This document shows positions 1-25,322 of a DNA stretch of 25,322 nt, piece after piece. The translations under genes were made by a program, and so were the position numbers. The notes beneath the pieces were generated by a model. That model ran no database searches. It was given only the letters and a program-made list of their open reading frames with translations, and had not been told where the DNA came from. The stretch spans positions 1 to 25,322 of the IMG/VR virus record IMGVR_UViG_3300025099_000126. One strand, given 5' to 3'. The stretch is from a virus (taxonomy: Duplodnaviria > Caudoviricetes). The stretch's first letter is position 1, and every line of letters begins with the position of its first letter.

Positions 1-1
1 A

Positions 2-2119
2 TATAATATTGACCATGACATGGTTGTTATATCTAAGACTGGACAAATTGGAGAGATTTATGAAATACAAAATCTTAAAATAGCTTTACCTAAACAAAAC
101 AATGTTCATAAGTTTGAAGAAGACAAATGGACTAGGTTTGATTACCCTAAAGTATTAAGTAAAATAAAAACAGTGTTTGACTGGAGAGAATATCCAGAGG
201 ACTTTAAAGAAAAATGGTATGATTACATTGATGAAGAATTTGCTCGTAGAGAAGAAGGTTTCTGGTACTTTAATAAAGGTATCCCTACTTACATTACTGG
301 CACTCATTATATGTACTTGCAGTGGTCCAAGATTGATGTTGGGCAGCCAGATTTTAGAGAGGCCAACCGTCTCTTTTTCATATTCTGGGCCGCATGTGTT
401 GCAGACTCCAGGTGTTACGGTATGTCCTATCTCAAGAACAGACGTTCTGGCTTTTCGTTTATGGCATCCGGAGAGTGCGTTAACATGGCGACCATATCAA
501 CCGACGCACGTTTTGGGATTTTGTCCAAATCTGGCGCCGATGCTAAGAAGATGTTTACCGACAAGGTTGTACCAATATCCGTTAATTATCCATTCTTTTT
601 CAAGCCCATCCAGGACGGAATGGACCGTCCAAAGACCGAGCTTGCCTACAGAGTCCCCGCGTCCAAGTTCACACGAAGAAGTATCGTCAAGACCAGCGAT
701 GAAACCGGTGAAACCCTCTCGGGTTTGGACACCACAATCGACTGGAAGAACACAGGCGATAACGCCTACGATGGAGAGAAACTCAGGCTCCTCGTCCACG
801 ATGAGTCGGGGAAGTGGGAGAGGCCCAACAACATCCTCAACAACTGGCGTGTTACGAAAACCACCCTTAGATTAGGTAGTAGAGTAATTGGTAAGTGTAT
901 GATGGGATCAACATCAAATGCTTTAGATAAAGGTGGTAGAAATTTTAAAAAATTATATGATGACTCAGACGTTACAAAAAGAAATGCCAATGGACAAACA
1001 CGTTCAGGACTCTATTCTTTGTTCATTCCTATGGAGTGGAACTACGAGGGATACATTGATTCTTATGGCCACCCTGTCTTCGAAACTCCATCAGAAAAAG
1101 TGTATGGACCTCATGGAACACCAATCACAATTGGGGTTATTGAATACTGGGAAAATGAGGTAGAAGGTCTTAAAGATGACCAAGACGGATTAAATGAATT
1201 TTATAGACAATTTCCTCGTACAACTAAACACGCGTTTAGAGACGAGTCTAAACAATCTTTATTTAATCTAACTAAAATATATCAACAAATAGATTACAAC
1301 GAAGATTTAGAAAAAAATTCAGTTGTAACTACAGGCAGCTTTAGTTGGGAAGATGGAATTAAAGATACAAAAGTTATATTCGTTCCAAATAAAAATGGTA
1401 GATTTAAGGTTTCTTGGGTGCCACCTGTGCATCTACAGAATCAAATATTTATAAAACACAACATGAAATACCCAGCGAATGAACACATAGGGGCTTTTGG
1501 TTGTGATAGTTATGATATATCAGGCACAGTAGATGGTAAAGGTTCTAATGGATCTTTGCATGGTTTAACTAAATTTAGCATGGATGAAGCACCGTCTAAT
1601 AACTTTTTTTTAGAATATATAGCTAGACCACAAACTGCTGAAATGTTTTTTGAAGATGTTTTAATGGCTTTGCATTTTTACGGAATGCCAATATTGGCAG
1701 AAAATAATAAACCAAGATTATTATACTATTTAAAACGTAGAGGTTATAGGAATTTTTCTATGAATAGACCTGATAAATTAAAATTATCTGTGACAGAAAG
1801 AGAGATTGGTGGAATACCTAACTCTAGTGAAGATATAAAACAAGCTCACGCTTCAGCTATAGAAACATACATAGAAAATCACGTAGGAAGTTTAGGAGAA
1901 AAATTTGGAAATATGTATTTTCAAAGAACACTAGAAGATTGGGCTACGTTTGATATTAACAATAGAACTAAGCACGATGCTTCTATTAGTTCAGGATTAG
2001 CTATAATGGCTTGTAATAAAAACAAATATAGACCAGTAAATGAAATAATTAGAGAAAAAGTTTCTTTAGGTTTTTCAAAATATAACAACAAAGGAGATTT
2101 TTCTAAAATAATAAAATAA
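2..2119 (+). CDS. terL: Terminase large subunit (5'-partial; true start probably upstream of the window)
   Basis: Frame is open from base 2 (YNIDHD before the ATG at 20). Deviant Walker A KNRRSGFS, Walker B LLVHDESGKW, coupling motif MGSTSN, RNase H-like nuclease motifs GCDSYD, AENNK and HDASISSGLA. Directly upstream of portal. Confidence 0.93.
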   Translation, partial: YNIDHDMVVISKTGQIGEIYEIQNLKIALPKQNNVHKFEEDKWTRFDYPKVLSKIKTVFDWREYPEDFKEKWYDYIDEEFARREEGFWYFNKGIPTYITGTHYMYLQWSKIDVGQPDFREANRLFFIFWAACVADSRCYGMSYLKNRRSGFSFMASGECVNMATISTDARFGILSKSGADAKKMFTDKVVPISVNYPFFFKPIQDGMDRPKTELAYRVPASKFTRRSIVKTSDETGETLSGLDTTIDWKNTGDNAYDGEKLRLLVHDESGKWERPNNILNNWRVTKTTLRLGSRVIGKCMMGSTSNALDKGGRNFKKLYDDSDVTKRNANGQTRSGLYSLFIPMEWNYEGYIDSYGHPVFETPSEKVYGPHGTPITIGVIEYWENEVEGLKDDQDGLNEFYRQFPRTTKHAFRDESKQSLFNLTKIYQQIDYNEDLEKNSVVTTGSFSWEDGIKDTKVIFVPNKNGRFKVSWVPPVHLQNQIFIKHNMKYPANEHIGAFGCDSYDISGTVDGKGSNGSLHGLTKFSMDEAPSNNFFLEYIARPQTAEMFFEDVLMALHFYGMPILAENNKPRLLYYLKRRGYRNFSMNRPDKLKLSVTEREIGGIPNSSEDIKQAHASAIETYIENHVGSLGEKFGNMYFQRTLEDWATFDINNRTKHDASISSGLAIMACNKNKYRPVNEIIREKVSLGFSKYNNKGDFSKIIK
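219..875 (+). CDS. Putative overprinted gene 1 in the +1 frame of terL; signal/lipoprotein-like N-terminus, Pro/Ser/Thr-rich (ATG at 219 or 231)
   Basis: The +1 frame has no stop from 168 to the TAG at 873-875. terL codons here become C/G-ending: 37/60 GC at 601-660 versus 14/60 at 61-120 and 11/60 at 1261-1320. N-terminus MKNLLVEKKVSGTLIKVSLLTLLALIICTCSG. Confidence 0.6.
   Translation: MITLMKNLLVEKKVSGTLIKVSLLTLLALIICTCSGPRLMLGSQILERPTVSFSYSGPHVLQTPGVTVCPISRTDVLAFRLWHPESALTWRPYQPTHVLGFCPNLAPMLRRCLPTRLYQYPLIIHSFSSPSRTEWTVQRPSLPTESPRPSSHEEVSSRPAMKPVKPSRVWTPQSTGRTQAITPTMERNSGSSSTMSRGSGRGPTTSSTTGVLRKPPLD
957..1163 (+). CDS. Putative overprinted gene 2 in the +1 frame of terL (68 aa)
   Basis: ATG at 957 lies in AAAATTATATGA, identical to the start context of the gene at 15923. 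terL again uses CTC/TTG/GTC/ATC-type codons over this stretch. Confidence 0.4.
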   Translation: MMTQTLQKEMPMDKHVQDSILCSFLWSGTTRDTLILMATLSSKLHQKKCMDLMEHQSQLGLLNTGKMR

Positions 2120-10242: not shown

Positions 10243-13200
10243 ATGGCAGAAATTAAAAATACCTTTTTAAAAGGTAAAATGAATCAAGATTTAGACGCTA
10301 GACTTGTTCCAAATGGAGAGTATAGAGAAGCTACAAATTTACAAATAAGTAGATCAGAAGGATCAACTGTTGGTGAGTTTGAAAATATTTTAGGTGATTT
10401 AGCTGTTGCTAGTACTGGGTCACAAAATATTAAAATAATAGGTCAATTTTCTGATACTACTAATAATATTATATATTTTTTTGCCAGTGATCATTATGAT
10501 AATTCATCGCCACCAGAAAGAACAGACAGCAGCAACAACTGTAGAATATACTCTTATAACATAGACACAAACGCTTTGGTTAATTTAGTAGATGGGTATT
10601 GGTTAAACTTCAATCAAGCTTACCCTATTTATGGAGTTAATCTTGTTGAAGAATTATTATTCTGGACTGATAACTTAAATCAACCAAGAAAAATAAATAT
10701 AAGTTTAGCTAACCCAACCCCTTTAGCTACTCCAGTTTATTATTTTAATGAAGACCAAGTTTCAGTAGCTAAATATTACCCGTATCAACCTATAGTTGCT
10801 ATGGAAAGAAGCACGTATAGAGTCGATGGGGCTGTAAATAATAGTAATATAGTAGTTTTAGATCAAGCGGCTTCTAACATACAGGTAGGAGATATAGTTA
10901 CAGACAAAATTAAAACAGGTACTGTAGTTATAAATTCTTTAATTACTGTAATTGAAATAACAGCAAGCAAAACTGTTAAATTATCACAAGCTGTGACTTT
11001 AGCAGACGGTTTTAAAATAGATTTCAGCAGACCTTCAATGGAGAATCAATCTAGCGAATATGTTAGCGATTATAGTTTAATAGAAAGCTATGCTGTTGCA
11101 GGTAATAACGCTGGAGACAATATAACTATACTGTCAACTCTTTTAAATAACACGCCTACAATAGGTATGTATGTGACTTGTCCTGATAGTCCTAGTAAAA
11201 TATCTAGTAGTAATTTTGGGGCAACCCCAGCTAATACAGGTGTTATAACATCAGTTAATGTTAGTGGTAGTAATACTATAATAACTTTAAACGTCGCTAA
11301 CACGTTAAACGCTAGTTCGCCTTTTCCTGATATATTGATAGGTAAAAATCCTAATTATGATTCTCAATGGAAAGGCGACCCTGATTTATTAAAACAAGAA
11401 TACGTTAGGTTTAGTTATAGGATAAAATTTATTGACAACGAGTATTCTTTAATGGCTCCTTTTAGTCAAATAATGTTTATCCCTGAGCAGTACAGTAAGT
11501 TTGGCAAAGGTATAAATACGCAAGAAGAAGATATGGACGACGCTTATCAAAGCACTATAGTATCTTGGATGCAAAATAATATTGACAATATTTTATTAAG
11601 AATACCTATACCAAAAATTATAAAAAGTAATCAGAATTTAGCAACAACAGCTAACGCTGCTGATTTAATCGCAAGTCTTCATATTAAGTCTATTGATATA
11701 TTATATAAAGAATCTGATTCATTAGCTGTTAAAGTTCTTGATACTGTTCAAATAACAAGCGCGACTACTTTTAGTTCTATTTTATATGAAGATCTAGTTA
11801 ATTTTAGTAATACTGTAAAATATTTAGATTACAATTACGAATCTAGCAAGCCATACAAAACACTACCTCAAAACCAAACAGTTAGAGTTTATGATAAAGT
11901 TCCTGTAAAAGCTTTATCGCAAGAAATTATAGGTAATAGAGTTGTTTACGGTAACTATATAGACAAGCATAGTAGTCCTTTAGCCGCTAATTATGGTGTT
12001 ACTATAGCCGACAAGTCTGTGGTTTATGATAACTATACTCAGTTTCCTAGTAGCTCTTTAAAACAAAACAGAACTTATCAAGTTGGTTTGGTTTTAGCAG
12101 ATAGATATGGTAGACAATCAAATGTTATTTTATCTACTCAAGATGATAATCCTAATCAACCTGGTTCTACTGTTTTTTCTCCTTATAAAAAATATTTAGA
12201 CAACGACGTTTTTAATTGGCTTGGTAATGCGTTTAGACTTACTTTTAACGCAGCTATACCTGTTGATAACCCTGGTCCTGGCATATGGAACTCTACAACA
12301 ACTCCATTAGGTTGGTTTTCTTATAAAACTGTTGTTAAACAACAAGAACAAGATTATTACAACGTGTACTTGCCAGGTTTTGTAAATGGTTACCCGGTAA
12401 CACAGAACGTAGAACAAGATCAAACTGTTTTTACAGTTTTAACTGGTGACAACATAAACAAAGTACCTAGAGATTTAACCGAGGTTAGTGGTCAACAAAC
12501 TCAATTTAGTAGTAGTGTTAGGTTGTTTGGCAGAGTGAATAATCCTAACATAAACAATAAGCAGACTGGATCACCAGTTATACCATACACTAATCATTCA
12601 ACTCCTTGGAACCAACAATATTATCCTAATATAAGTTCTGAATTTGTAAGAAACATAACAACAATACAAGATGGTGAAATACAAGCCTCGCCTTTTCAAG
12701 CTGGGATAAACGCTGGCGCTTTTGATAACGTTGCAGGTAAAATACCTTGGGGCACTACGCCTGGTGGAAATAATGATGATATGGCCCCGTTGTACAATGC
12801 TGACGCTAATCCTTATTTTGCAGAACTAAGTGTAGGTCAAAGAGTGTTAGAAACTAATGACACAGACCCTGTAAACGCTTCAAGAAACAGAAGTAATCAA
12901 TTAGGCGCTATATGTACAGTTAACGCAGCTGGATCTTCTGGTGCAATAATTACTATGCAACCTTTTTTAACTATATCTGAAACAGATCCTACGGTTTCGT
13001 TGTTAGATATATTTTGGGAAACATCCTCTACGGGTAATTTAATAGATTTAAATAATACTATCAACGCACAGTATGCTGGTTTAGTTACAACTACAGATGT
13101 TGATTTATCATTTTTTGAAAACGCAGTGCCAGAGACAGCTATAGATGCTAGTTTTAGTTTTGTAGATGGTGGTGGAACTCCTAGAACAAATCTTACGTCC

Positions 13201-14508
13201 GCTAGTATAACAACTATAGTAGACAACTTAAATAACTCTGTAGACAACAAAACATTTGAATTAAGAGCAAACAGTAACGGTACTTATGGTCTTTATACTG
13301 GTAAAGCAAGCACCACAGGCTTAGACGCTTATTTTTGGTATGGAACAAGTTCGCCTCAAGTAAACGACTATACAATAACTTTTGCTACTGTTTTTACAGC
13401 TGGAGACGGAGTAACATACTCAAATTCTATATCTACAATGAACGTTAAAGTAAAAAACATTATACCATCTACTCTAGTAGGTAATCAATGTCCTATAACT
13501 TTATCAGGAACTGATGCTCCATCTGTTAGCGATACTACTATATTTAATTTTTTAACTGGTCAAACAGTTGGTAGCACAGCTAACTATGGTAAATGGGTTA
13601 ATGGATCTGCTGATGTTAATAATCACCAGCAAGAATTAATTTTTAGTATTATATCTCAAGTAGATACAAGCGGATCAGTTAATATATTTGAATTTGCTAC
13701 GCCTTCAAACGGTGTTTTAACCGTAAAAAGTAACTCAACTTTAGTAACTGGAAAAACTTATACTATAAACGTTGGTATAACAGATAACAATGGTGTTACA
13801 ACTGGCGCTGTACCATACACTGGTCTTCAAGGTAATTGTTCTATATCGTTTACTGTTGGGGCTCAGCATATAAATAGAGCGCCTTGTAATGGCCCAATAT
13901 TAACTGGATTAAACATAGGGTGTGGAAATTATAGACAAATATGGGCGTTTGTAAATAGCGCTTCGCAATCAGGAACTTCTGGTGGTTTAGGAACATATCC
14001 TTCAACAGGCATACCTACTATATTTTATGGCACGTCAAACAATTATACTTATTATAATGTGGCAAATAAGTATAGCGCAAGCATAGTAGGCAACACTACA
14101 AACGGAGGTTTAAACTCTGGAGCGTCACTATATATAACGCCTACTTTAAGATTTACACAAGCTCCTAATAATCCAAGTGCTAATGTATATTATACTATAC
14201 AGCATAGAGCTAACGCTCAAAGCTCTTGGCAACAAGCGGTTTATTACAAAATACAGCAAAATAATGGATCTATAGTAACAACAACAGGCGCTGTTGGTAC
14301 AGCAAATTATTTAACTGGATCTTATATAAGTGGAGGAGCCACAGATTACAAAACAAAATATTGGTTTAATGTTGCTGGTGAATATAGGGTTTTATCTTCT
14401 TATGTTCAAGGTCAACTTTGCTCTACAGGTTCAGCAAGCACAGTTACATTTTTTCCTGATTTTGGAGATGGCGTGTACAGTGGCCAATGTAGTTTAGGCC
14501 CATTGTAA
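10243..14508 (+). CDS. Tail stabilisation/muzzle protein (P22 gp10-like), N-terminal part, with C-terminal beta-rich cadherin/Ig-like extension
   Basis: 1421 aa. MAEIKNTFLKGKMNQDLDARLVPNGEYREATN, LLFWTDNLNQPRKIN, RFSYRIKFIDNEYSLMAPFSQ, VPVKALSQEIIGNRVVYGNY and SLKQNRTYQVGLVLADRYGR match patterns of this family. Confidence 0.72.
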   Translation: MAEIKNTFLKGKMNQDLDARLVPNGEYREATNLQISRSEGSTVGEFENILGDLAVASTGSQNIKIIGQFSDTTNNIIYFFASDHYDNSSPPERTDSSNNCRIYSYNIDTNALVNLVDGYWLNFNQAYPIYGVNLVEELLFWTDNLNQPRKINISLANPTPLATPVYYFNEDQVSVAKYYPYQPIVAMERSTYRVDGAVNNSNIVVLDQAASNIQVGDIVTDKIKTGTVVINSLITVIEITASKTVKLSQAVTLADGFKIDFSRPSMENQSSEYVSDYSLIESYAVAGNNAGDNITILSTLLNNTPTIGMYVTCPDSPSKISSSNFGATPANTGVITSVNVSGSNTIITLNVANTLNASSPFPDILIGKNPNYDSQWKGDPDLLKQEYVRFSYRIKFIDNEYSLMAPFSQIMFIPEQYSKFGKGINTQEEDMDDAYQSTIVSWMQNNIDNILLRIPIPKIIKSNQNLATTANAADLIASLHIKSIDILYKESDSLAVKVLDTVQITSATTFSSILYEDLVNFSNTVKYLDYNYESSKPYKTLPQNQTVRVYDKVPVKALSQEIIGNRVVYGNYIDKHSSPLAANYGVTIADKSVVYDNYTQFPSSSLKQNRTYQVGLVLADRYGRQSNVILSTQDDNPNQPGSTVFSPYKKYLDNDVFNWLGNAFRLTFNAAIPVDNPGPGIWNSTTTPLGWFSYKTVVKQQEQDYYNVYLPGFVNGYPVTQNVEQDQTVFTVLTGDNINKVPRDLTEVSGQQTQFSSSVRLFGRVNNPNINNKQTGSPVIPYTNHSTPWNQQYYPNISSEFVRNITTIQDGEIQASPFQAGINAGAFDNVAGKIPWGTTPGGNNDDMAPLYNADANPYFAELSVGQRVLETNDTDPVNASRNRSNQLGAICTVNAAGSSGAIITMQPFLTISETDPTVSLLDIFWETSSTGNLIDLNNTINAQYAGLVTTTDVDLSFFENAVPETAIDASFSFVDGGGTPRTNLTSASITTIVDNLNNSVDNKTFELRANSNGTYGLYTGKASTTGLDAYFWYGTSSPQVNDYTITFATVFTAGDGVTYSNSISTMNVKVKNIIPSTLVGNQCPITLSGTDAPSVSDTTIFNFLTGQTVGSTANYGKWVNGSADVNNHQQELIFSIISQVDTSGSVNIFEFATPSNGVLTVKSNSTLVTGKTYTINVGITDNNGVTTGAVPYTGLQGNCSISFTVGAQHINRAPCNGPILTGLNIGCGNYRQIWAFVNSASQSGTSGGLGTYPSTGIPTIFYGTSNNYTYYNVANKYSASIVGNTTNGGLNSGASLYITPTLRFTQAPNNPSANVYYTIQHRANAQSSWQQAVYYKIQQNNGSIVTTTGAVGTANYLTGSYISGGATDYKTKYWFNVAGEYRVLSSYVQGQLCSTGSASTVTFFPDFGDGVYSGQCSLGPL

Positions 14509-18676: not shown

Positions 18677-21600
18677 ATGAATCAACCAGAATTTTATACA
18701 GCAATTGGTTTTGACGAACCGGTTGATATAAATGAATTAAGTGAAGAAAATAGAAAGTTCTTTTTTGAACAGTTCTCACCTAAACCAGTAAAGAAAAACG
18801 ATCCTGCTGTAAATGCGGAGACCAATGTGGGATCGACAAACAATACGGTCTCACAATCGGTGGATGGTTCTTTGGAATTACAAGAAGCTAAAAAATTAAT
18901 AAAAGAAGATTTATTTAGTAAAGAAAAAAAAGAAAAGCTAACTTTAGAGGCTGACGAGGCGTATAACGCGTTAGAGCAAGATATTTCTAATCAAACCACT
19001 AGAAGAGAGGAGGCTAATCAAGCGACAGAGTTTATGTTTTCAAATATGAGTATGTTTGATAAGTCTTCTTTTAAAGGTCCTTTTAGTGATGAAGACAATA
19101 AAAATGTTTCTAAAGATACTCAAAAAAACACTATATTAAATGACGCGTATTATTATTCTTTAAGTCTTATGGATAAACTTGCGCTTGGTGGTAGAAATAC
19201 AGATGCTGATGGATCAGAAAGAGCACCTTTAACTGAAAAAGATATAGAACAACAAAATAGCAATATTATTGAAGGTAAGAAATTACTAAAAGACAGTAGA
19301 GAGGTTAAAAATTTTAATTTACTTAAAAAAAATAGAGAACAAGTAGCTATAGACGCGTTACAGTCGCAAAACAATAAAAACATTTCTGACGAACAAGTGT
19401 TAGATTATGTAGATAAAAACAAAGAAGACGAAAATTTTAAAACAAGTGTTAAAGATTTTTTTGTAAAAGGCTATATAAAAGAAAGGCAAAAAGAAGCCAT
19501 AATAGAACGTAATAAAAAAGAATCTGGCTGGGATGGTTTTACAGAAGGTGAAAATCAAAATAGATTAGAAGAAGCCGCTGCTTTAGTTTCTAGTAGTTTA
19601 GACGAAGAAGCTCAAAGTAACATAGCCACATCTGTAAACATAGATTCTAAAATACAAAAAATTGAGCAATCACTAAAGTCTTTGCAAACTTTAAGGCCAA
19701 AAAATCAAGAAGAAGCTGATTTAATAATAGAGCAAGCGGGTTTATTTATAAAAGAAAGACAAGGACTAGTTAATGCTTATGGTGAATTAGTTAATAAGCA
19801 AATAGAAATAGGTACTGAAGCAAAAGACATTAGAGGTTACTTAGACACTGTTAGTCGTAACCAAGGTTGGTTAGTAAACCCTATTGGTGCTTTAGTAGGC
19901 GGTGTATATGATTTTGTTAATAACGTTGACGAATTTGTAGATAGACTTAGTTATACTCCTTTTGAAATGGCTGCTGATTTAATTAAAGTTAAAACAGATG
20001 AAAATTCTTGGCTTCACAAAGGTGTATTAGCTATGGAAGGATTAGAAAAAACTAATTTTGGTGTTGATACAGCTATAAAAAACATGAGAAACGGTTTAGC
20101 AGAACCTATAAGTGTTACTGACATAAACAATTGGAGTGACATGTGGCAGTGGAGTTCTTATTTAGTAGGATCTCAAGCAACAAACACAGCTGTCATGTTA
20201 ACAACAGGTGGTTGGGCATTACCATTGTTAGGCGCAAGCTCAGCAGGTGCTTCGTTTAACAGTATGCAAGAAGAAATAGACTTGTATGGAGCTGAATACA
20301 CGCCTCTTCAAATGTATACAGTTGCTTTAGGTAGTGGTTTAGCAGAAGCTTTAAGCGAAAGAATAACTTTAGGTCAATTAAATAGAATAAAAAGAGGTTT
20401 AGCGGCTAGTAAAAAGTCTTTAAAACAAGGTACTTTTGATTACATTAAAAGCTTGTCTACAAGTAAAGGTAGAAAAAATGCTGCTTTAGGAGCTTTTGTA
20501 TATGGTAAAGAAACTTTTGAAGAAGGTTTTACTGAATCTGTAGCTGGTTTTTCACAAAGAGCTTTAGAAAGATATGTGTTAGGTAAAGATGTTGACCTGT
20601 TTGAAGGTATGTTAGACGAGTTTGTGTCTGGAGCATTTATGAGTGGTTTTGTTTATAAAGCACCAGGTTTAGGTATTAAAATGTATAGAGCGTTTCAACC
20701 ACCTGATTCTAACGAAGCAATAGGTAAGATTCAGACAAGAATGGACGAAATAGGTAACATACTTATGAACAATCCTTCTATGGATATTCGTGTTAGAAAA
20801 AAATTAGAAGACGAATTACAAGAAGGTGCTACTAAAGTTCAGCAGATAATGTCTAGGGATTTTAAAAACATGGACAAAATGACTCAGCAAGAGCAGAGTG
20901 ATTTAATGAAAAAAGAAGATCAAATATATAAGTTGAGACAACTGTATGACGCTACTCTTAATGATAATACTATAAACGAAAAAGATAAAACAGATATATT
21001 AAATAGTTTAAATGCTGAGTTTAAATCTATAAGAAACGACAAGGTAAAAATATTATCTGAAGTTAATGTAAGAGAAGAAATAGCTTTAGCTCAAAAGCTA
21101 GGCAAGGAAACAGGTAGAACAGATTTTGGTGACAACGCGGTTGGAACAGGTCAAGCTGTAGAAGTTGTAGAAGATGACGCTGCTTTTATGGAAATGACTA
21201 AGATAAAAGAAACAGGTGTTGAAGGTACTGAGTTAGATAATGGTCAAATAGTTCTTAACAAAGCTCAAATGCTTGCCTCTGCTATGCGTAACGATGGTAA
21301 TATAGGTACTGGTATACATGAGGTTTTACATAAAGTATTAAAATCTGAATTTAGTAGTAAAGATCCAGCAAAAGCTAAAAAATTAAAAGACCAATTTTTA
21401 AAAGTACTAAAATCTGAAAATAAATCAATACATGATTTAGTTATAGCTAGAGCTGATGCAAATTACAGTCCAGATTATTTAGAAAAAAATCCTGATGAAT
21501 ACATTACAATATTCGCTAGTGTATTAAAAGAAAACAATATAGAGTACAGCCAAGCGACAGATAGTGTGTTTAAAAAATTAGCTAACTTTGTTGGTGGCTT

Positions 21601-24600
21601 ATTTAGTAGTAAATTAGATGTTGATCCAAACGACTTTAAATTTAAAGACGGTAAAGATTTATATAACTTTGTTCAAACATATGTTAAAAACACTTCTGAG
21701 GGTAAAATATCTGACAGAGCTAAAAAGCTAGCAGATGCAGGTAAAGATATTACAACTGATATTAAACTTTCTAAAAATGCTTCTGACACTGTTCAAGAAA
21801 TATTTGAAACTAAAGGTAAAGATGGTGCTTTTGAAATAATAGAACAATACAGAGGTATGGCTAATAAGTTGGCTAATAAATACCAAAACGTACCAGGCTT
21901 TGAAAGACAACTACTTGTTGACGAAATACTAACAGGTAAACGTGGTGTTATAGATATGATAAACGAATATAAAGCAGACACTAATGTTCCTTTAGCCGCT
22001 TATATAAATAAATTTTTATCATCAAGATCTATAGAAGCTGCTAATAGAGTTTTAAAACAAGAGTTTGAAACTGATGTCACAGAGGCTAAAGCAGTTGTAG
22101 CTAAAGAAGCTTCTACAGAAGTTGAAGCAGAAACAAAAGCTAAACCAAAGCCTAGGTTAAGAAAAGATTTAAAGTTACAAGATGATGTTATAGACAAAAT
22201 TAAAAACGCTGTAATCAAAACTTTTGGAACTAAACTACCTAGTGTTAAATCACCTCAGTTTAAAAAAGAACTAGAAAAACAATTTAAAACAGAACTAAAA
22301 CCTGTTATAGCTAAATTGATGGGTAGAACTGATAGTTACGAAACTTTTTTAAGAGATAATTTTGAAGCTATATATAAAGCATTGCCTCAAGAAATAATAA
22401 ACAAAAGATTTAGAGACTTTGCAGATCCTGTAATGAAAGACGGTAAACAGGTAAGAGAAAAGACAGCGCAAGGTAATGCTGTTTTTACTAAGAAAAAAAT
22501 TACTAAAGCTGAATTTATAAAATACTTTTTAGGTTCTGATGTAGGTAGATCAACTCAAGGAACTAGAAAAACTGCATTAGCAGAAGCATTAGCTCAAGAG
22601 TTAGCCTTAGACGCTACTATGGAAGTCATACAAAACCCAGGTGTGTTAGAAAAAGCTATAGCTATATCTAACCTAGTAGATGGTGACTTTACTATAGAAG
22701 GAGTTTCTTTAAGTATAAAAAGACCTAAAGGCGTTAAGTTCTCTAAAGTTGAATTAAACGACTTTAATGACGATGTGGCTGATCAATTAACTTTAACCAA
22801 CGCTTTTCAAAGTGGTCCTTTTAACACTGTTAAGCTACAACAGTACAATAGTCAAGCACTTAATTATAAAAAATTATTAAAAGATCTAAATGTTGAAGGT
22901 TTTGATATGAAAACTGCCAAAGGTAGAAAACAGTTTTTAGATTATGCTTATACTCGCAATATGATAACTAAATTTCCTAAAGCTTTCTGGAGAAGTATGC
23001 AAGGAACAACTGATGACGCTGTTTTAGATCCAAATATTCGTTCTAAATCTGAATCACAGTCCGATACTGGTTACCAAATTTCTATGCAAGAATTAGACGA
23101 AGCTGGAAATATAGTGTCAATTGGTTATGATGTAGATACGTTTGACAGTAGTACTTTAAGAGATTTTGCTGGTAACTTACCTTTTAGAAGTGTAACAGAA
23201 GCAGACGCTTGGATAGATCAAATTGAAAATGGAGAATATGAAATAGACGGTGTAATACAACCTGCTGTTAAGTTTGCAAACGAAAATTCTATTAGTCCTA
23301 ATATGATGGCTGCTTTGTCAAGCACAAAGTACACCAACATGAAAGAAAATGGCAAACAAAGTTTTAACAAAATAAAAACTAGTAAGTTTCAAGCTGAGCA
23401 AGACAAATCAATAGATGGGTTAAAAGAAATATTTTTAATATTTGAGCAAGCTATTAAAGATGATAAAAACGCGGCTGCTTTTGTTGCGGCTATATTATCT
23501 TCTACAGCTTCTAATCAAGGTCATTTCATGAGAACATCTGCGCCTATTAGATTTTTTACAACTAATTTGCAAGCTGGGCCAAAAGGAATAAAATTTGTAG
23601 AAGAACACAGCTTACCAGCCTCAAGTGTTGCTAAGTATTTATTTGCATTAGCTATAAACGGAACAGTAGAATCTAAATTTGACGGCGTTAAAAACAATTA
23701 TTATCAAGGCGCGATAAATAGCATAGATGATAAGAAATTAAAAGGAACAATGTTAAATGGTGAAAAGTTTAACTATGGTTCTGTAATGCCTTTAGGTTGG
23801 ACTATAAACGACCAAACATGGGCTAGATACTTTAATATTAACGTAGGTAATACAAGAGGAGGTATTGATCCTGCTAAAATAATATGGAACGACGGTAAAA
23901 GTATTGCTGAAAAAACAGGCGTTAATTCATATGGCTTTATAGCTAAAGGAGAAACTAAAATTACCGAAAAAGAAGCAAAAACTCAAAACGGAAAGCTGTC
24001 TAGAAATATACCAGTCGATGCTTCTATTAGTAAACAAGTTGAAATAATGTCTAACATGGATAAAACCATGAAGCTTGCTAGAAACATTAATACACCTGAA
24101 AAGGGTATCAGTGTGTTTGACTTTGACGATACTTTAGCTAGAACAAGCAGCAAAATTATAGTAACCATGCCTAACGGTAAGGTTATGAAAATTAACGCTA
24201 CTGAGTTTGCTAAAAGAGACGCAGAGCTTACAGCGAAAGGAGCTAAGTATAATTTTAGCGAATTTAATAAAGTTATTAATGGCAAAAAAGGACCACTTGC
24301 TGATTTAGCATTAAAACGTCAAGGTAAGTTTGGTAGTAAAGATATATTTGTATTAACAGCTAGACCACAAATAGCAGCTGATGCAATTAAAAAGTTTTTA
24401 GACGGTATAGGATTAAGTCTACCTTTAGAAAACATTACAGGTTTAGAAAACGGAACACCACAAGCAAAAGCTGATTGGGTTTTATCTAAAACAGCTCTAG
24501 GTTATAATAATTTTTATTTTGCTGACGACGCAATTAAAAATGTTAAAGCAGTTAAACAAATACTAGATCAAGTTGATGTTAAGTCAAAAGTTCAAATAGC

Positions 24601-25322
24601 TAAATTTAGTAAAGCATCAAACCTCAATAAACAGTTTAACGACATTATAGAAGACGCAACAGGTATTGCTAATTACAAAAACTTTTCAACAGCAAGAGCA
24701 AGAACTTTAGGTAGAGGTAAAAGTGCGGGTTGGTTTATACCTCCTCAAGCTGAGGACTTTGTAGGTTTATTGTATCCTTTATTAGGTAAAGGCAAAACTG
24801 GTGACGCAGGTATGAAGTTTTTTAAAGAAAACTTACTAGATCCTTTTAATAAAGCTGAAAATGCTTTAACACAGGCTAAAATATCTGTAGCTAATGATTT
24901 TAGAGCTCTTAAAAAACAATTTAAAACTATACCTAAAACTCTCAAAAAAGAGGCTATGGATGGTTTTACATATGGAGACGCTGTAAGAACTTATATATGG
25001 TCTCAACAAGGTATGGAGATACCTGGTTTATCAAAAAGAGATGGTGTTGAATTAATTTCGTTTATAGAAAACGACATAGAGCTAAAACAGTTTGCTCAAG
25101 GTTTACAAATGATACAAAAAGATAGAATGTATCCTGAACCTGATGAGTCTTGGTTGTCTGGAACTATTACAACTGACATAATAGGAGGTATAAACAATGT
25201 TGTAAGAAAAGATTATTTACAAGAGTGGGAACAAAATATAGATATTATATTTTCACCTGAAAATCTAAATAAATTAGAAGCTGCTTACGGTCAAAACTAT
25301 AGAGAAGCTTTAGAAAATATTA
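18677..25322 (+). CDS. Giant multi-domain (polyvalent) virion/ejection protein, 3'-partial, at least 2215 codons
   Basis: ATG at 18677 (MNQPEFYTAIG...). Segments I translated are all in one frame and no terminated + ORF is listed here, so it appears to run off the window. Contains Gly/Ala hydrophobic helices (~20180-20680), HEVLH (21317-21331), a sigma-like segment (~21833-22055), EEHSLP (23600-23617) and HAD motifs DFDDT/LTAR/K/FADD (24119-24529). Confidence 0.85.
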   Translation, partial: MNQPEFYTAIGFDEPVDINELSEENRKFFFEQFSPKPVKKNDPAVNAETNVGSTNNTVSQSVDGSLELQEAKKLIKEDLFSKEKKEKLTLEADEAYNALEQDISNQTTRREEANQATEFMFSNMSMFDKSSFKGPFSDEDNKNVSKDTQKNTILNDAYYYSLSLMDKLALGGRNTDADGSERAPLTEKDIEQQNSNIIEGKKLLKDSREVKNFNLLKKNREQVAIDALQSQNNKNISDEQVLDYVDKNKEDENFKTSVKDFFVKGYIKERQKEAIIERNKKESGWDGFTEGENQNRLEEAAALVSSSLDEEAQSNIATSVNIDSKIQKIEQSLKSLQTLRPKNQEEADLIIEQAGLFIKERQGLVNAYGELVNKQIEIGTEAKDIRGYLDTVSRNQGWLVNPIGALVGGVYDFVNNVDEFVDRLSYTPFEMAADLIKVKTDENSWLHKGVLAMEGLEKTNFGVDTAIKNMRNGLAEPISVTDINNWSDMWQWSSYLVGSQATNTAVMLTTGGWALPLLGASSAGASFNSMQEEIDLYGAEYTPLQMYTVALGSGLAEALSERITLGQLNRIKRGLAASKKSLKQGTFDYIKSLSTSKGRKNAALGAFVYGKETFEEGFTESVAGFSQRALERYVLGKDVDLFEGMLDEFVSGAFMSGFVYKAPGLGIKMYRAFQPPDSNEAIGKIQTRMDEIGNILMNNPSMDIRVRKKLEDELQEGATKVQQIMSRDFKNMDKMTQQEQSDLMKKEDQIYKLRQLYDATLNDNTINEKDKTDILNSLNAEFKSIRNDKVKILSEVNVREEIALAQKLGKETGRTDFGDNAVGTGQAVEVVEDDAAFMEMTKIKETGVEGTELDNGQIVLNKAQMLASAMRNDGNIGTGIHEVLHKVLKSEFSSKDPAKAKKLKDQFLKVLKSENKSIHDLVIARADANYSPDYLEKNPDEYITIFASVLKENNIEYSQATDSVFKKLANFVGGLFSSKLDVDPNDFKFKDGKDLYNFVQTYVKNTSEGKISDRAKKLADAGKDITTDIKLSKNASDTVQEIFETKGKDGAFEIIEQYRGMANKLANKYQNVPGFERQLLVDEILTGKRGVIDMINEYKADTNVPLAAYINKFLSSRSIEAANRVLKQEFETDVTEAKAVVAKEASTEVEAETKAKPKPRLRKDLKLQDDVIDKIKNAVIKTFGTKLPSVKSPQFKKELEKQFKTELKPVIAKLMGRTDSYETFLRDNFEAIYKALPQEIINKRFRDFADPVMKDGKQVREKTAQGNAVFTKKKITKAEFIKYFLGSDVGRSTQGTRKTALAEALAQELALDATMEVIQNPGVLEKAIAISNLVDGDFTIEGVSLSIKRPKGVKFSKVELNDFNDDVADQLTLTNAFQSGPFNTVKLQQYNSQALNYKKLLKDLNVEGFDMKTAKGRKQFLDYAYTRNMITKFPKAFWRSMQGTTDDAVLDPNIRSKSESQSDTGYQISMQELDEAGNIVSIGYDVDTFDSSTLRDFAGNLPFRSVTEADAWIDQIENGEYEIDGVIQPAVKFANENSISPNMMAALSSTKYTNMKENGKQSFNKIKTSKFQAEQDKSIDGLKEIFLIFEQAIKDDKNAAAFVAAILSSTASNQGHFMRTSAPIRFFTTNLQAGPKGIKFVEEHSLPASSVAKYLFALAINGTVESKFDGVKNNYYQGAINSIDDKKLKGTMLNGEKFNYGSVMPLGWTINDQTWARYFNINVGNTRGGIDPAKIIWNDGKSIAEKTGVNSYGFIAKGETKITEKEAKTQNGKLSRNIPVDASISKQVEIMSNMDKTMKLARNINTPEKGISVFDFDDTLARTSSKIIVTMPNGKVMKINATEFAKRDAELTAKGAKYNFSEFNKVINGKKGPLADLALKRQGKFGSKDIFVLTARPQIAADAIKKFLDGIGLSLPLENITGLENGTPQAKADWVLSKTALGYNNFYFADDAIKNVKAVKQILDQVDVKSKVQIAKFSKASNLNKQFNDIIEDATGIANYKNFSTARARTLGRGKSAGWFIPPQAEDFVGLLYPLLGKGKTGDAGMKFFKENLLDPFNKAENALTQAKISVANDFRALKKQFKTIPKTLKKEAMDGFTYGDAVRTYIWSQQGMEIPGLSKRDGVELISFIENDIELKQFAQGLQMIQKDRMYPEPDESWLSGTITTDIIGGINNVVRKDYLQEWEQNIDIIFSPENLNKLEAAYGQNYREALENI
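18784..18891 (+). other. Candidate programmed -1 frameshift cassette giving a Cys-rich alternative C-terminus (..EKRSCCKCGDQCGIDKQYGLTIGGWFFGITRS*)
   Basis: The -1 frame is open between TAA 18781-18783 and TAA 18889-18891 with no start codon. A_AAG at 18790-18793 (G_AAA_AAC at 18793-18799), then an 8-bp stem GATCCTGC/GTGGGATC (18800-18834, two G-U pairs). Local GC elevation. Confidence 0.5.

Follow-up and report, generated by a model that had tools for sequence, protein, structure and literature searches.

The +1 frame of the terminase large subunit gene (terL) in a 25,322-base fragment of a marine phage genome, which we call the window, is almost certainly a translated gene, and its product very probably replaces a stand-alone lipoprotein gene found in related phages. 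That the overprinted gene arose de novo is likely. For the more complete proposal, in which a de novo overprinted lipoprotein takes over from the stand-alone lipoprotein of the lysis cassette and acts like an o-spanin in the breakage of the outer membrane, we consider the chances to be about even.

The first in-window ATG, at position 20, is internal to terL and the true start lies upstream of the window; the TerL proteins of relatives are 736–757 aa long and start about 37 residues earlier. Portal and structural genes follow downstream, and a giant ORF (18677–25322; over 2,215 aa) runs off the contig end, the lysis cassette being next in relatives. The nearest annotated record is MW202828 (65%), in which the +1 frame is closed; phages of Flavobacterium, Cellulophaga, Tenacibaculum and Maribacter stand below 60% to the window, and the Elemovirus rows displayed at 45%. 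From these records we infer a flavobacterial host for the window phage.

The open frame, its alleles and its product

Recomputation gave the stop-free run of about 235 codons that had been described in the original prediction: it extends from 168 to 872 (235 codons), being preceded by +1 stops at 81, 156 and 165 and followed, as had also been claimed, by an immediate return of stops (TAG 873, TAA 885 and TGA 900). When terL was recoded with the codon usage of the phage, runs of at least 235 codons appeared in 0 of 3000 trials (mean 58, maximum 158), and synonymous shuffles across the whole of terL likewise gave 0 of 3000; shuffles within the overlap region only gave 14 of 3000. The +1 runs in nine other large genes were 34–105 codons long. 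The GC-rich stretches reported earlier were measured at 61.7% (601–660) and 58.3% (781–840). The rise in GC held, but the 18–23% once given for the flanks did not, total GC being mostly 26–39% in 100-nt windows; the lower figure suits GC3 or the lines poorest in GC and is not typical of the flanks. GC3 is 0.45–0.80 across terL codons 81–280 and 0.10–0.40 elsewhere. An antisense ORF of 100 codons on the minus strand (497–799), inside the overlap and with no Pfam match, is probably a by-product of the GC3 rise.

Table 1. Coordinates of terL, of the overprinted gene and of its parts in the window
Feature	Position	Strand	Basis or remark
terL (terminase large subunit, host frame)	1..2119	+	phrog_6681, E=1.6e-162; 5' end cut by window
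Overprinted gene, +1 frame of terL, 218 aa	219..875	+	ATG 219, stop TAG 873-875
GC3 island, co-extensive with the +1 gene	250..872	.	GC and GC3 profiles
Basic n-region of leader	219..278	+	sequence, carrier comparison
Hydrophobic h-region	279..308	+	Leu fixed by T-ending terL codons
Non-canonical lipobox-like I-C-T-C; predicted lipidated Cys at 318-320 (Cys34)	309..320	+	site counts
Variable polar body, predicted disordered	321..683	+	pLDDT <50 for residues 37-201; high synonymous diversity
Ser/Thr/Arg/Gly/Pro-rich tail, missing from shorter alleles	684..872	+	Ser/Thr codons fixed where present

In a first sample, made up of the window and 80 terL loci of 74–94% amino acid identity (the best 80 of at least 600), the +1 run through terL codon 120 was bimodal, with 157–266 codons in 63 of the 81 genes, 22–83 in the other 18 and none between; dereplication at 95% left 55 carriers and 18 non-carriers. 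A second, pattern-based sample, which reaches more distant phages and overlaps the first in part, had 27 open and 47 closed frames among the 74 loci with enough flank (of 120). The carriers listed all have an ATG or TTG between terL codons 67 and 74, the start ATG standing at the window's codon in 46 of 54, and the alleles stop at terL codon 221–232, 254 or 277–284. An open frame without the second Cys of the leader was seen at five loci (L152, L198, L199, L200 and L209) and an intact leader with an early stop at three (L094, L120 and L193); these may be stages of decay or birth. In the 3 kb upstream of terL, 39 carriers and 12 non-carriers were alike in gene content; in relatives this side of terL holds GroEL/GroES-like genes and a 3TM holin (phrog_3427), distant from the endolysin (G001:27005-28799 and relatives; L028:1054-1509).

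ORF status changes 11–12 times on terL C-terminal trees and 6 times on the tree of the overlap (FastTree). The window and locus L001 are near-identical after codon 270 (87–100% nucleotide identity, vs. 62–90% inside the overlap), yet they carry different open alleles, and in L002, a close relative of the window, the frame is closed. A mosaic structure at the scale of 100–600 bases is visible in terL among the window (20–2119), L001, L002, L007 and L012. The ATPase segment of terL is exchanged by recombination, and these trees therefore do not tell how often, or in which direction, the gene was gained and lost. The overprint is narrower in distribution than terL itself; the terL family is very common (an estimated 12,000–14,000 stored viral stretches), so that standard annotation often misses the overprinted gene.

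The leader, MITLMKNLLVEKKVSGTLIKVSLLTLLALIICTCSG, agrees with its earlier description as a basic n-region and a hydrophobic stretch followed by C-T-C, and the lipoprotein features found in the 55 carriers are a basic n-region, a hydrophobic h-region and an invariant Cys. The lipobox is imperfect, as had been noted: I/T-C-T-C departs at -2 and -1 from the canonical [LVI][ASTVI][GAS]C given in the accessible part of the spanin survey (PMC6139136). Among the papers listed by a search on Thr-1 lipoboxes in Bacteroidetes none was usable. We regard lipidation of the product as fairly likely. The mature chains of the 55 alleles, 120–185 aa long with a net charge of +2 to +28, are rich in Ser, Thr, Leu, Arg, Gln and Pro, and none contains a second or C-terminal transmembrane (TM) segment (best 19-residue hydropathy 0.17–1.17). 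The AlphaFold model consists of a single helix (residues 2–34) with pLDDT below 50 beyond it (mean 44), which suggests that the mature chain may be disordered, although low pLDDT of a de novo sequence is no proof of this. Among the 157 hits of a profile search of 1.84 billion proteins, 150 were listed: 149 fall in the terL +1 frame (E<1e-5), the remaining one is a TerL chimera, and no stand-alone homologue is among them. Pfam, PHROG and NCBIfam gave no match to the overprint, the Atlas matches are all below 0.9 and serve as leads only, and contigs from RNA runs span the overlap but show neither strand, frame nor level.

Probable exchange with a lipoprotein of the endolysin cassette

The complete non-carrier genome G001 encodes a lipoprotein of 145 aa ahead of an M15 endolysin. 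This lipoprotein has a clear SSC box, its middle is rich in Tyr and Trp and its tail consists of Pro, Thr, Ser and Asn; its gene overlaps that of a 96-aa protein with one TM segment and an acidic coiled-coil-like end. The members of this stand-alone family have a clear xSC box and a net charge of +6 to +10, are rich in Asn, Thr, Pro, Tyr and Ser, and are usually encoded in the endolysin cassette, about 30 kb from terL. Co-occurrence was scored in contigs fetched by the 96-aa membrane protein (the best 80 of 243), in which 16 of the 80 cassettes have the stand-alone lipoprotein. After 16 contigs with no terL match had been dropped, 64 long contigs were left, 19 with interrupted frames and 45 with open ones (16 of them seen in part, one with an N gap, and four with a stop only upstream of the codon-71 start). 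The stand-alone lipoprotein, its divergent form included, accompanies 17 of the 19 interrupted vs. one of the 45 open frames (Fisher p=2e-12, kinship being ignored and one phage being counted twice, as G096 and G099). Of the 64 genomes, 41 were placed on a tree of the terL C-terminal part; there one trait changes 11 times, the other 10 and the two together 13 times, and sisters of opposite state are G051/G062, G083/G057, G074/G056, G045/G039 and G044/G067+G069. Two further genomes, G023 and G025, are consistent with the exclusion.

All-frame scans of 12 carriers (84–100% complete) found the nested ORF and neither stand-alone form; three of the 12 have a lipobox-bearing YfiM-like gene, and the few other candidates look spurious. 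The exclusion has exceptions, for G075 possesses both genes, and in the records of G049, G107, G013 and G012 (53–99% complete; incomplete or distant) a long overprint and the stand-alone family are both missing. Short overprints, with an intact leader plus 54–88 residues, stand beside the stand-alone gene in G044, G023 and G096/G099, which suggests that the leader alone is insufficient. The divergent stand-alone form came to light in an all-frame scan after a genome-wide search had overlooked it, and partial contigs may hide further forms of this kind. No homology between the overprint and the stand-alone lipoprotein was detected by sequence comparison; a weak HMM match of the stand-alone family to the overprint of one contig (G010, E=0.001) is taken as compositional, and the conserved N-terminal motif of the stand-alone protein is absent from the overprint.

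The usual order of the cassette is barrel, lipoprotein (where there is one), membrane protein, thioredoxin-like protein and endolysin. The window ends before it, and the candidate partner of the overprint is known from relatives only: a 95-aa membrane protein of i-spanin topology, with a TM segment and an acidic coiled-coil-like part, which adjoins the M15 endolysin. Its post-TM, periplasmic part has a charge of -2 to -10 (mean -7), opposite to that of both lipoproteins, and its gene lies 26–33 kb from the overprint in G006, G070 and G103. No match to a spanin family was found for the 95-aa protein or for either of the two lipoproteins.

The replaced gene adjoins the endolysin and the partner has i-spanin topology with opposite charge; for these reasons a role of the overprint in lysis deserves to be considered, with prospects that we see as evenly balanced. 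The spanin-like role suggested in the original prediction gains indirect support from the mutual exclusion with a lipoprotein of the lysis cassette. The overprint probably works like an o-spanin. Translation would start at ATG 219 on the late head-gene transcript, and the product would be exported by Sec, lipidated at Cys34 (window 318), cleaved and delivered to the outer membrane. Its long basic chain would then span the periplasm and bind, mainly through charge, to the acidic coiled coil of the 95-aa protein in the inner membrane; after removal of the wall by the 3TM holin and the endolysin the pair of lipoprotein and membrane protein would disrupt the outer membrane. Since the task seems to call for no more than an anchor and a long polar chain, a TerL-constrained sequence could serve, and the stand-alone gene would be lost thereafter. 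Against the o-spanin reading, the overprint sits in terL, neither embedded in, overlapping nor adjacent to an i-spanin gene, and spanin models leave no part for the outer-membrane barrel and the exported thioredoxin-like protein of the cassette. The non-canonical box, the lack of homology between the two lipoproteins, the exceptions to the exclusion and the open alleles devoid of the second Cys likewise speak against the full proposal. By the tests run the overprint is not a member of a spanin family, and it would represent a new arrangement of the embedded-lipoprotein type. Tentatively, we propose that a lysis lipoprotein born de novo within the ATPase gene of the terminase took the place of an ancestral lipoprotein unrelated to it, that two interchangeable solutions segregate in marine phages, that the spanin-like halves are encoded 30 kb apart, and that the outer half may need nothing beyond a lipid anchor and a chain that is long, basic and disordered.

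The unexplained barrel and thioredoxin-like genes keep alive an explanation that accepts the same lipoprotein and the same replacement and assigns them to another task: together with these two proteins the lipoprotein would alter the envelope, hide a receptor or keep out superinfecting phages. Exclusion lipoproteins are known in phages (T5 Llp, Cor), the barrel gene adjoins the stand-alone lipoprotein in most cassettes, and the barrel fold is supported, the barrel itself having a lipobox-like leader in G015 and G019. We nevertheless hold this explanation to be unlikely. The carriers G003 and G010 have the 95-aa protein with no barrel match in their partial contigs, a gene within terL should be late, and receptor blocking usually needs a conserved surface, whereas the body of the overprint is highly variable.

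The barrel protein (390–420 aa, with a signal peptide) is modelled as an outer-membrane beta-barrel (pLDDT 78; L213:921-2147 = G001:66430-67656, with 78 related genes in L214-L292). Its best fold matches, at low TM-score, are porins, autotransporter barrels and BamA, and it has no family in Pfam, PHROG or NCBIfam. The lipobox-like leader that opens the barrel gene of the non-carriers G019 (L359:5952-7049) and G015 (L340:1495-1989) is perhaps a third way to supply an anchor. The exported thioredoxin-like protein, of about 132 aa, is encoded between the membrane protein and the endolysin (L216:3291-3689 and relatives), and the CxxC motif is missing in the examples examined. In two relatives of 114–115 kb a different basic lipoprotein of 237–249 aa, rich in Tyr, Trp and Asn, adjoins the barrel (L282:2279-2992, L290:1048-1797).

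Selection on the leader and on the tail

The original reading as an overprinted gene is borne out, and the gene is under selection: the frame is kept in most close relatives, and synonymous choices in terL fix the leader, the Thr-Cys pair and the tail. Its caveat that +1 frames may be hydrophobic on their own was justified in part, because the first Cys and some of the hydrophobicity are forced by TerL. The first Cys follows from a Met-Tyr of TerL and is present in 16 of 18 non-carriers too, and the residue before it shows no difference between carriers (34 of 54) and non-carriers (11 of 18). The second Cys, at the Cys+1 position, requires TTG or CTG at an invariant TerL Leu; it is present in all 55 carriers vs. 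4 of 18 non-carriers, and Cys occurs at 23 of 177 comparable Leu sites in the body. Ser is common at those body sites and never found at the second-Cys position. In the second sample the Cys codon was present in 26 of 27 open and 11 of 47 closed frames. At residue -1 of the second Cys TerL allows only Ile or Thr, and Thr was found in 53 of 55 carriers vs. 5 of 18 non-carriers. Leu at terL codons 89, 93 and 95 is encoded in 53, 54 and 53 of 54 carriers and in 10, 8 and 11 of 18 non-carriers; these h-region residues are fixed via T-ending terL codons, while C-ending codons increase elsewhere. The mean hydropathy of the h-region is 3.3 in carriers vs. 2.1 in non-carriers, and synonymous diversity is lowest at terL codons 85–99 (0.28), the body having 0.5–0.6. 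Selection acts on both the leader and the second Cys.

These counts bear on the possibility that the gene is real and its product carries no lipid, being either an uncleaved inner-membrane anchor or a polar chain exported by signal peptidase I, with the CxC serving in a disulfide-linked dimer. Such a product would agree with the non-canonical box, with the single helix modelled over residues 2–34 and with the few alleles lacking the second Cys. However, the preference for Thr over Ile at -1 exceeds the 56% seen for Thr at comparable sites in the body and, like the Cys that is never Ser, fits lipidation; under the general rules of signal-peptidase cleavage, the Pro found three residues on in 26 of 55 alleles disfavours cleavage after Gly; and the gene that the overprint excludes encodes a clear lipoprotein. 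We judge a non-lipidated product to be rather improbable.

That carriers lack stop-forming codons follows from how they are defined. NTA codons preceding pyrimidines are retained in carriers (380 of 707), and therefore their codon change is not a generic GC gain. GC3 follows the reading frame of each allele class: at codons 222–254 it is 0.19 in the class that has already stopped vs. 0.60–0.62, at codons 255–284 it is 0.20 vs. 0.59, and in long alleles many tail sites are fixed for Ser or Thr. Since GC3 drops at every class's own +1 stop, the GC island is a coding footprint, left by selection for a polar +1 product and not by RNA structure or a foreign patch.

It is accordingly very doubtful that a structured RNA, a site for packaging or DNA acquired from a GC-richer phage holds the frame open with no protein made. 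The segment does recombine and GC-richer relatives exist (L063, L069), but those relatives carry many +1 stops, and selection in the leader is site-specific. The structured-RNA alternative raised originally failed, for the GC-rich segment folds no better than its shuffles (z=0.44), and no Rfam match covers the overlap region. Scattered +1 stops combined with high GC had been named as favouring such an element; 16 of the 18 non-carriers have low GC3, and the other two are GC-richer throughout. A recombinant patch with no conserved ORF had been put forward as well, but the exchanged alleles carry the ORF, and a foreign GC-rich patch is ruled out by the fall of GC3 at each class's +1 stop. A programmed +1 frameshift fusing the TerL N-terminus to the +1 frame, for which four TerL/+1 chimeras among database proteins (P0004, P0009, P0044, P0064) might speak, was rejected and is scarcely credible, as the chimera junctions all differ and come from one contig each, as assembly indels would give, and the carriers have start codons of their own whereas a fusion would bury the leader.

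Relation to known overprinted and lysis genes

According to the accessible part of the spanin survey (PMC6139136), lambda Rz1 lies in the +1 frame of Rz, as T7 18.7 lies in 18.5, and the overprint resembles both as a probable lipoprotein gene read in the +1 frame of a different phage gene, in its flexible Pro-containing chain after the Cys and in being missed by gene callers. Unlike these, it has the packaging ATPase gene and not an i-spanin gene as its host, and its candidate partner is 26–33 kb away, the largest separation of spanin genes in the survey being about 1 kb. It also differs from Rz1 and 18.7 in its mature chain of 120–185 aa, its non-canonical box and its presence or absence among close relatives, and shares no sequence similarity with them. 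The word "terminase" does not occur in that part of the survey.

The original prediction knew of no published case of a membrane-anchored lysis or exclusion protein overprinted on an essential packaging gene, but ORFs nested in a terminase gene have been described before. The T7-like genes 19.2 and 19.3 are nested in gene 19, with products of 41–56 aa in the phages tabulated (PMC4925675), and are described as hypothetical genes with a potential lysis function (PMC8365609). Like the overprint they are out-of-frame ORFs within a terminase large subunit gene for which a link to lysis is suggested; unlike it they belong to another terminase family, and the accessible parts of these two papers mention neither a lipoprotein leader nor a gene replacement. 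Among the papers listed by a literature search made largely outside the subscription journals, none describes the terL-overprinted gene.

Overprinted lysis genes are familiar from small phages, such as phiX174 E in D and the sgl genes of ssRNA phages, and phiKT gp28 is said to be a cationic outer-membrane disruptor. The overprint is similar to E and sgl as a de novo envelope-acting product, if our reading is right, over an essential gene, and is cationic like gp28, but it differs from all three by its place in a tailed phage of 60–70 kb with its own holin and endolysin and by its long exported chain in place of a short peptide. A de novo gene is seldom accompanied by living relatives still in the ancestral non-coding state and also by a hint of its function. 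Among phages 74–94% identical in TerL, the +1 frame of this one essential gene is open in some and closed in others, the length variants show tail extension or trimming, the gene apparently replaced can be named, and birth and takeover of function become testable by exchanging the two genes. This may also account for some phages with no spanin found, where the lipoprotein may hide in the packaging gene, far from the cassette.

With unimolecular spanins (u-spanins) of the T1 gp11 type the overprint shares a lipoprotein leader, and unlike them it is devoid of a C-terminal TM segment. Distant relatives encode this topology by the endolysin. The non-carriers G014, G017 and G021, which have no match to the 95-aa membrane protein or the barrel, share a family of u-spanin-like proteins with a lipobox and a C-terminal TM segment; in G017 the gene (phrog_5885; L347:4798-5268) directly follows a holin (PF05105) and an endolysin (PF13539), and G018 has another protein of this topology (L350:3073-3492). 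Such a pattern would be expected if the cassette and a u-spanin were alternatives, as judged from four genomes and by topology rather than family. The u-spanin-like proteins of distant relatives, those at L440 and L441 included, are unannotated.
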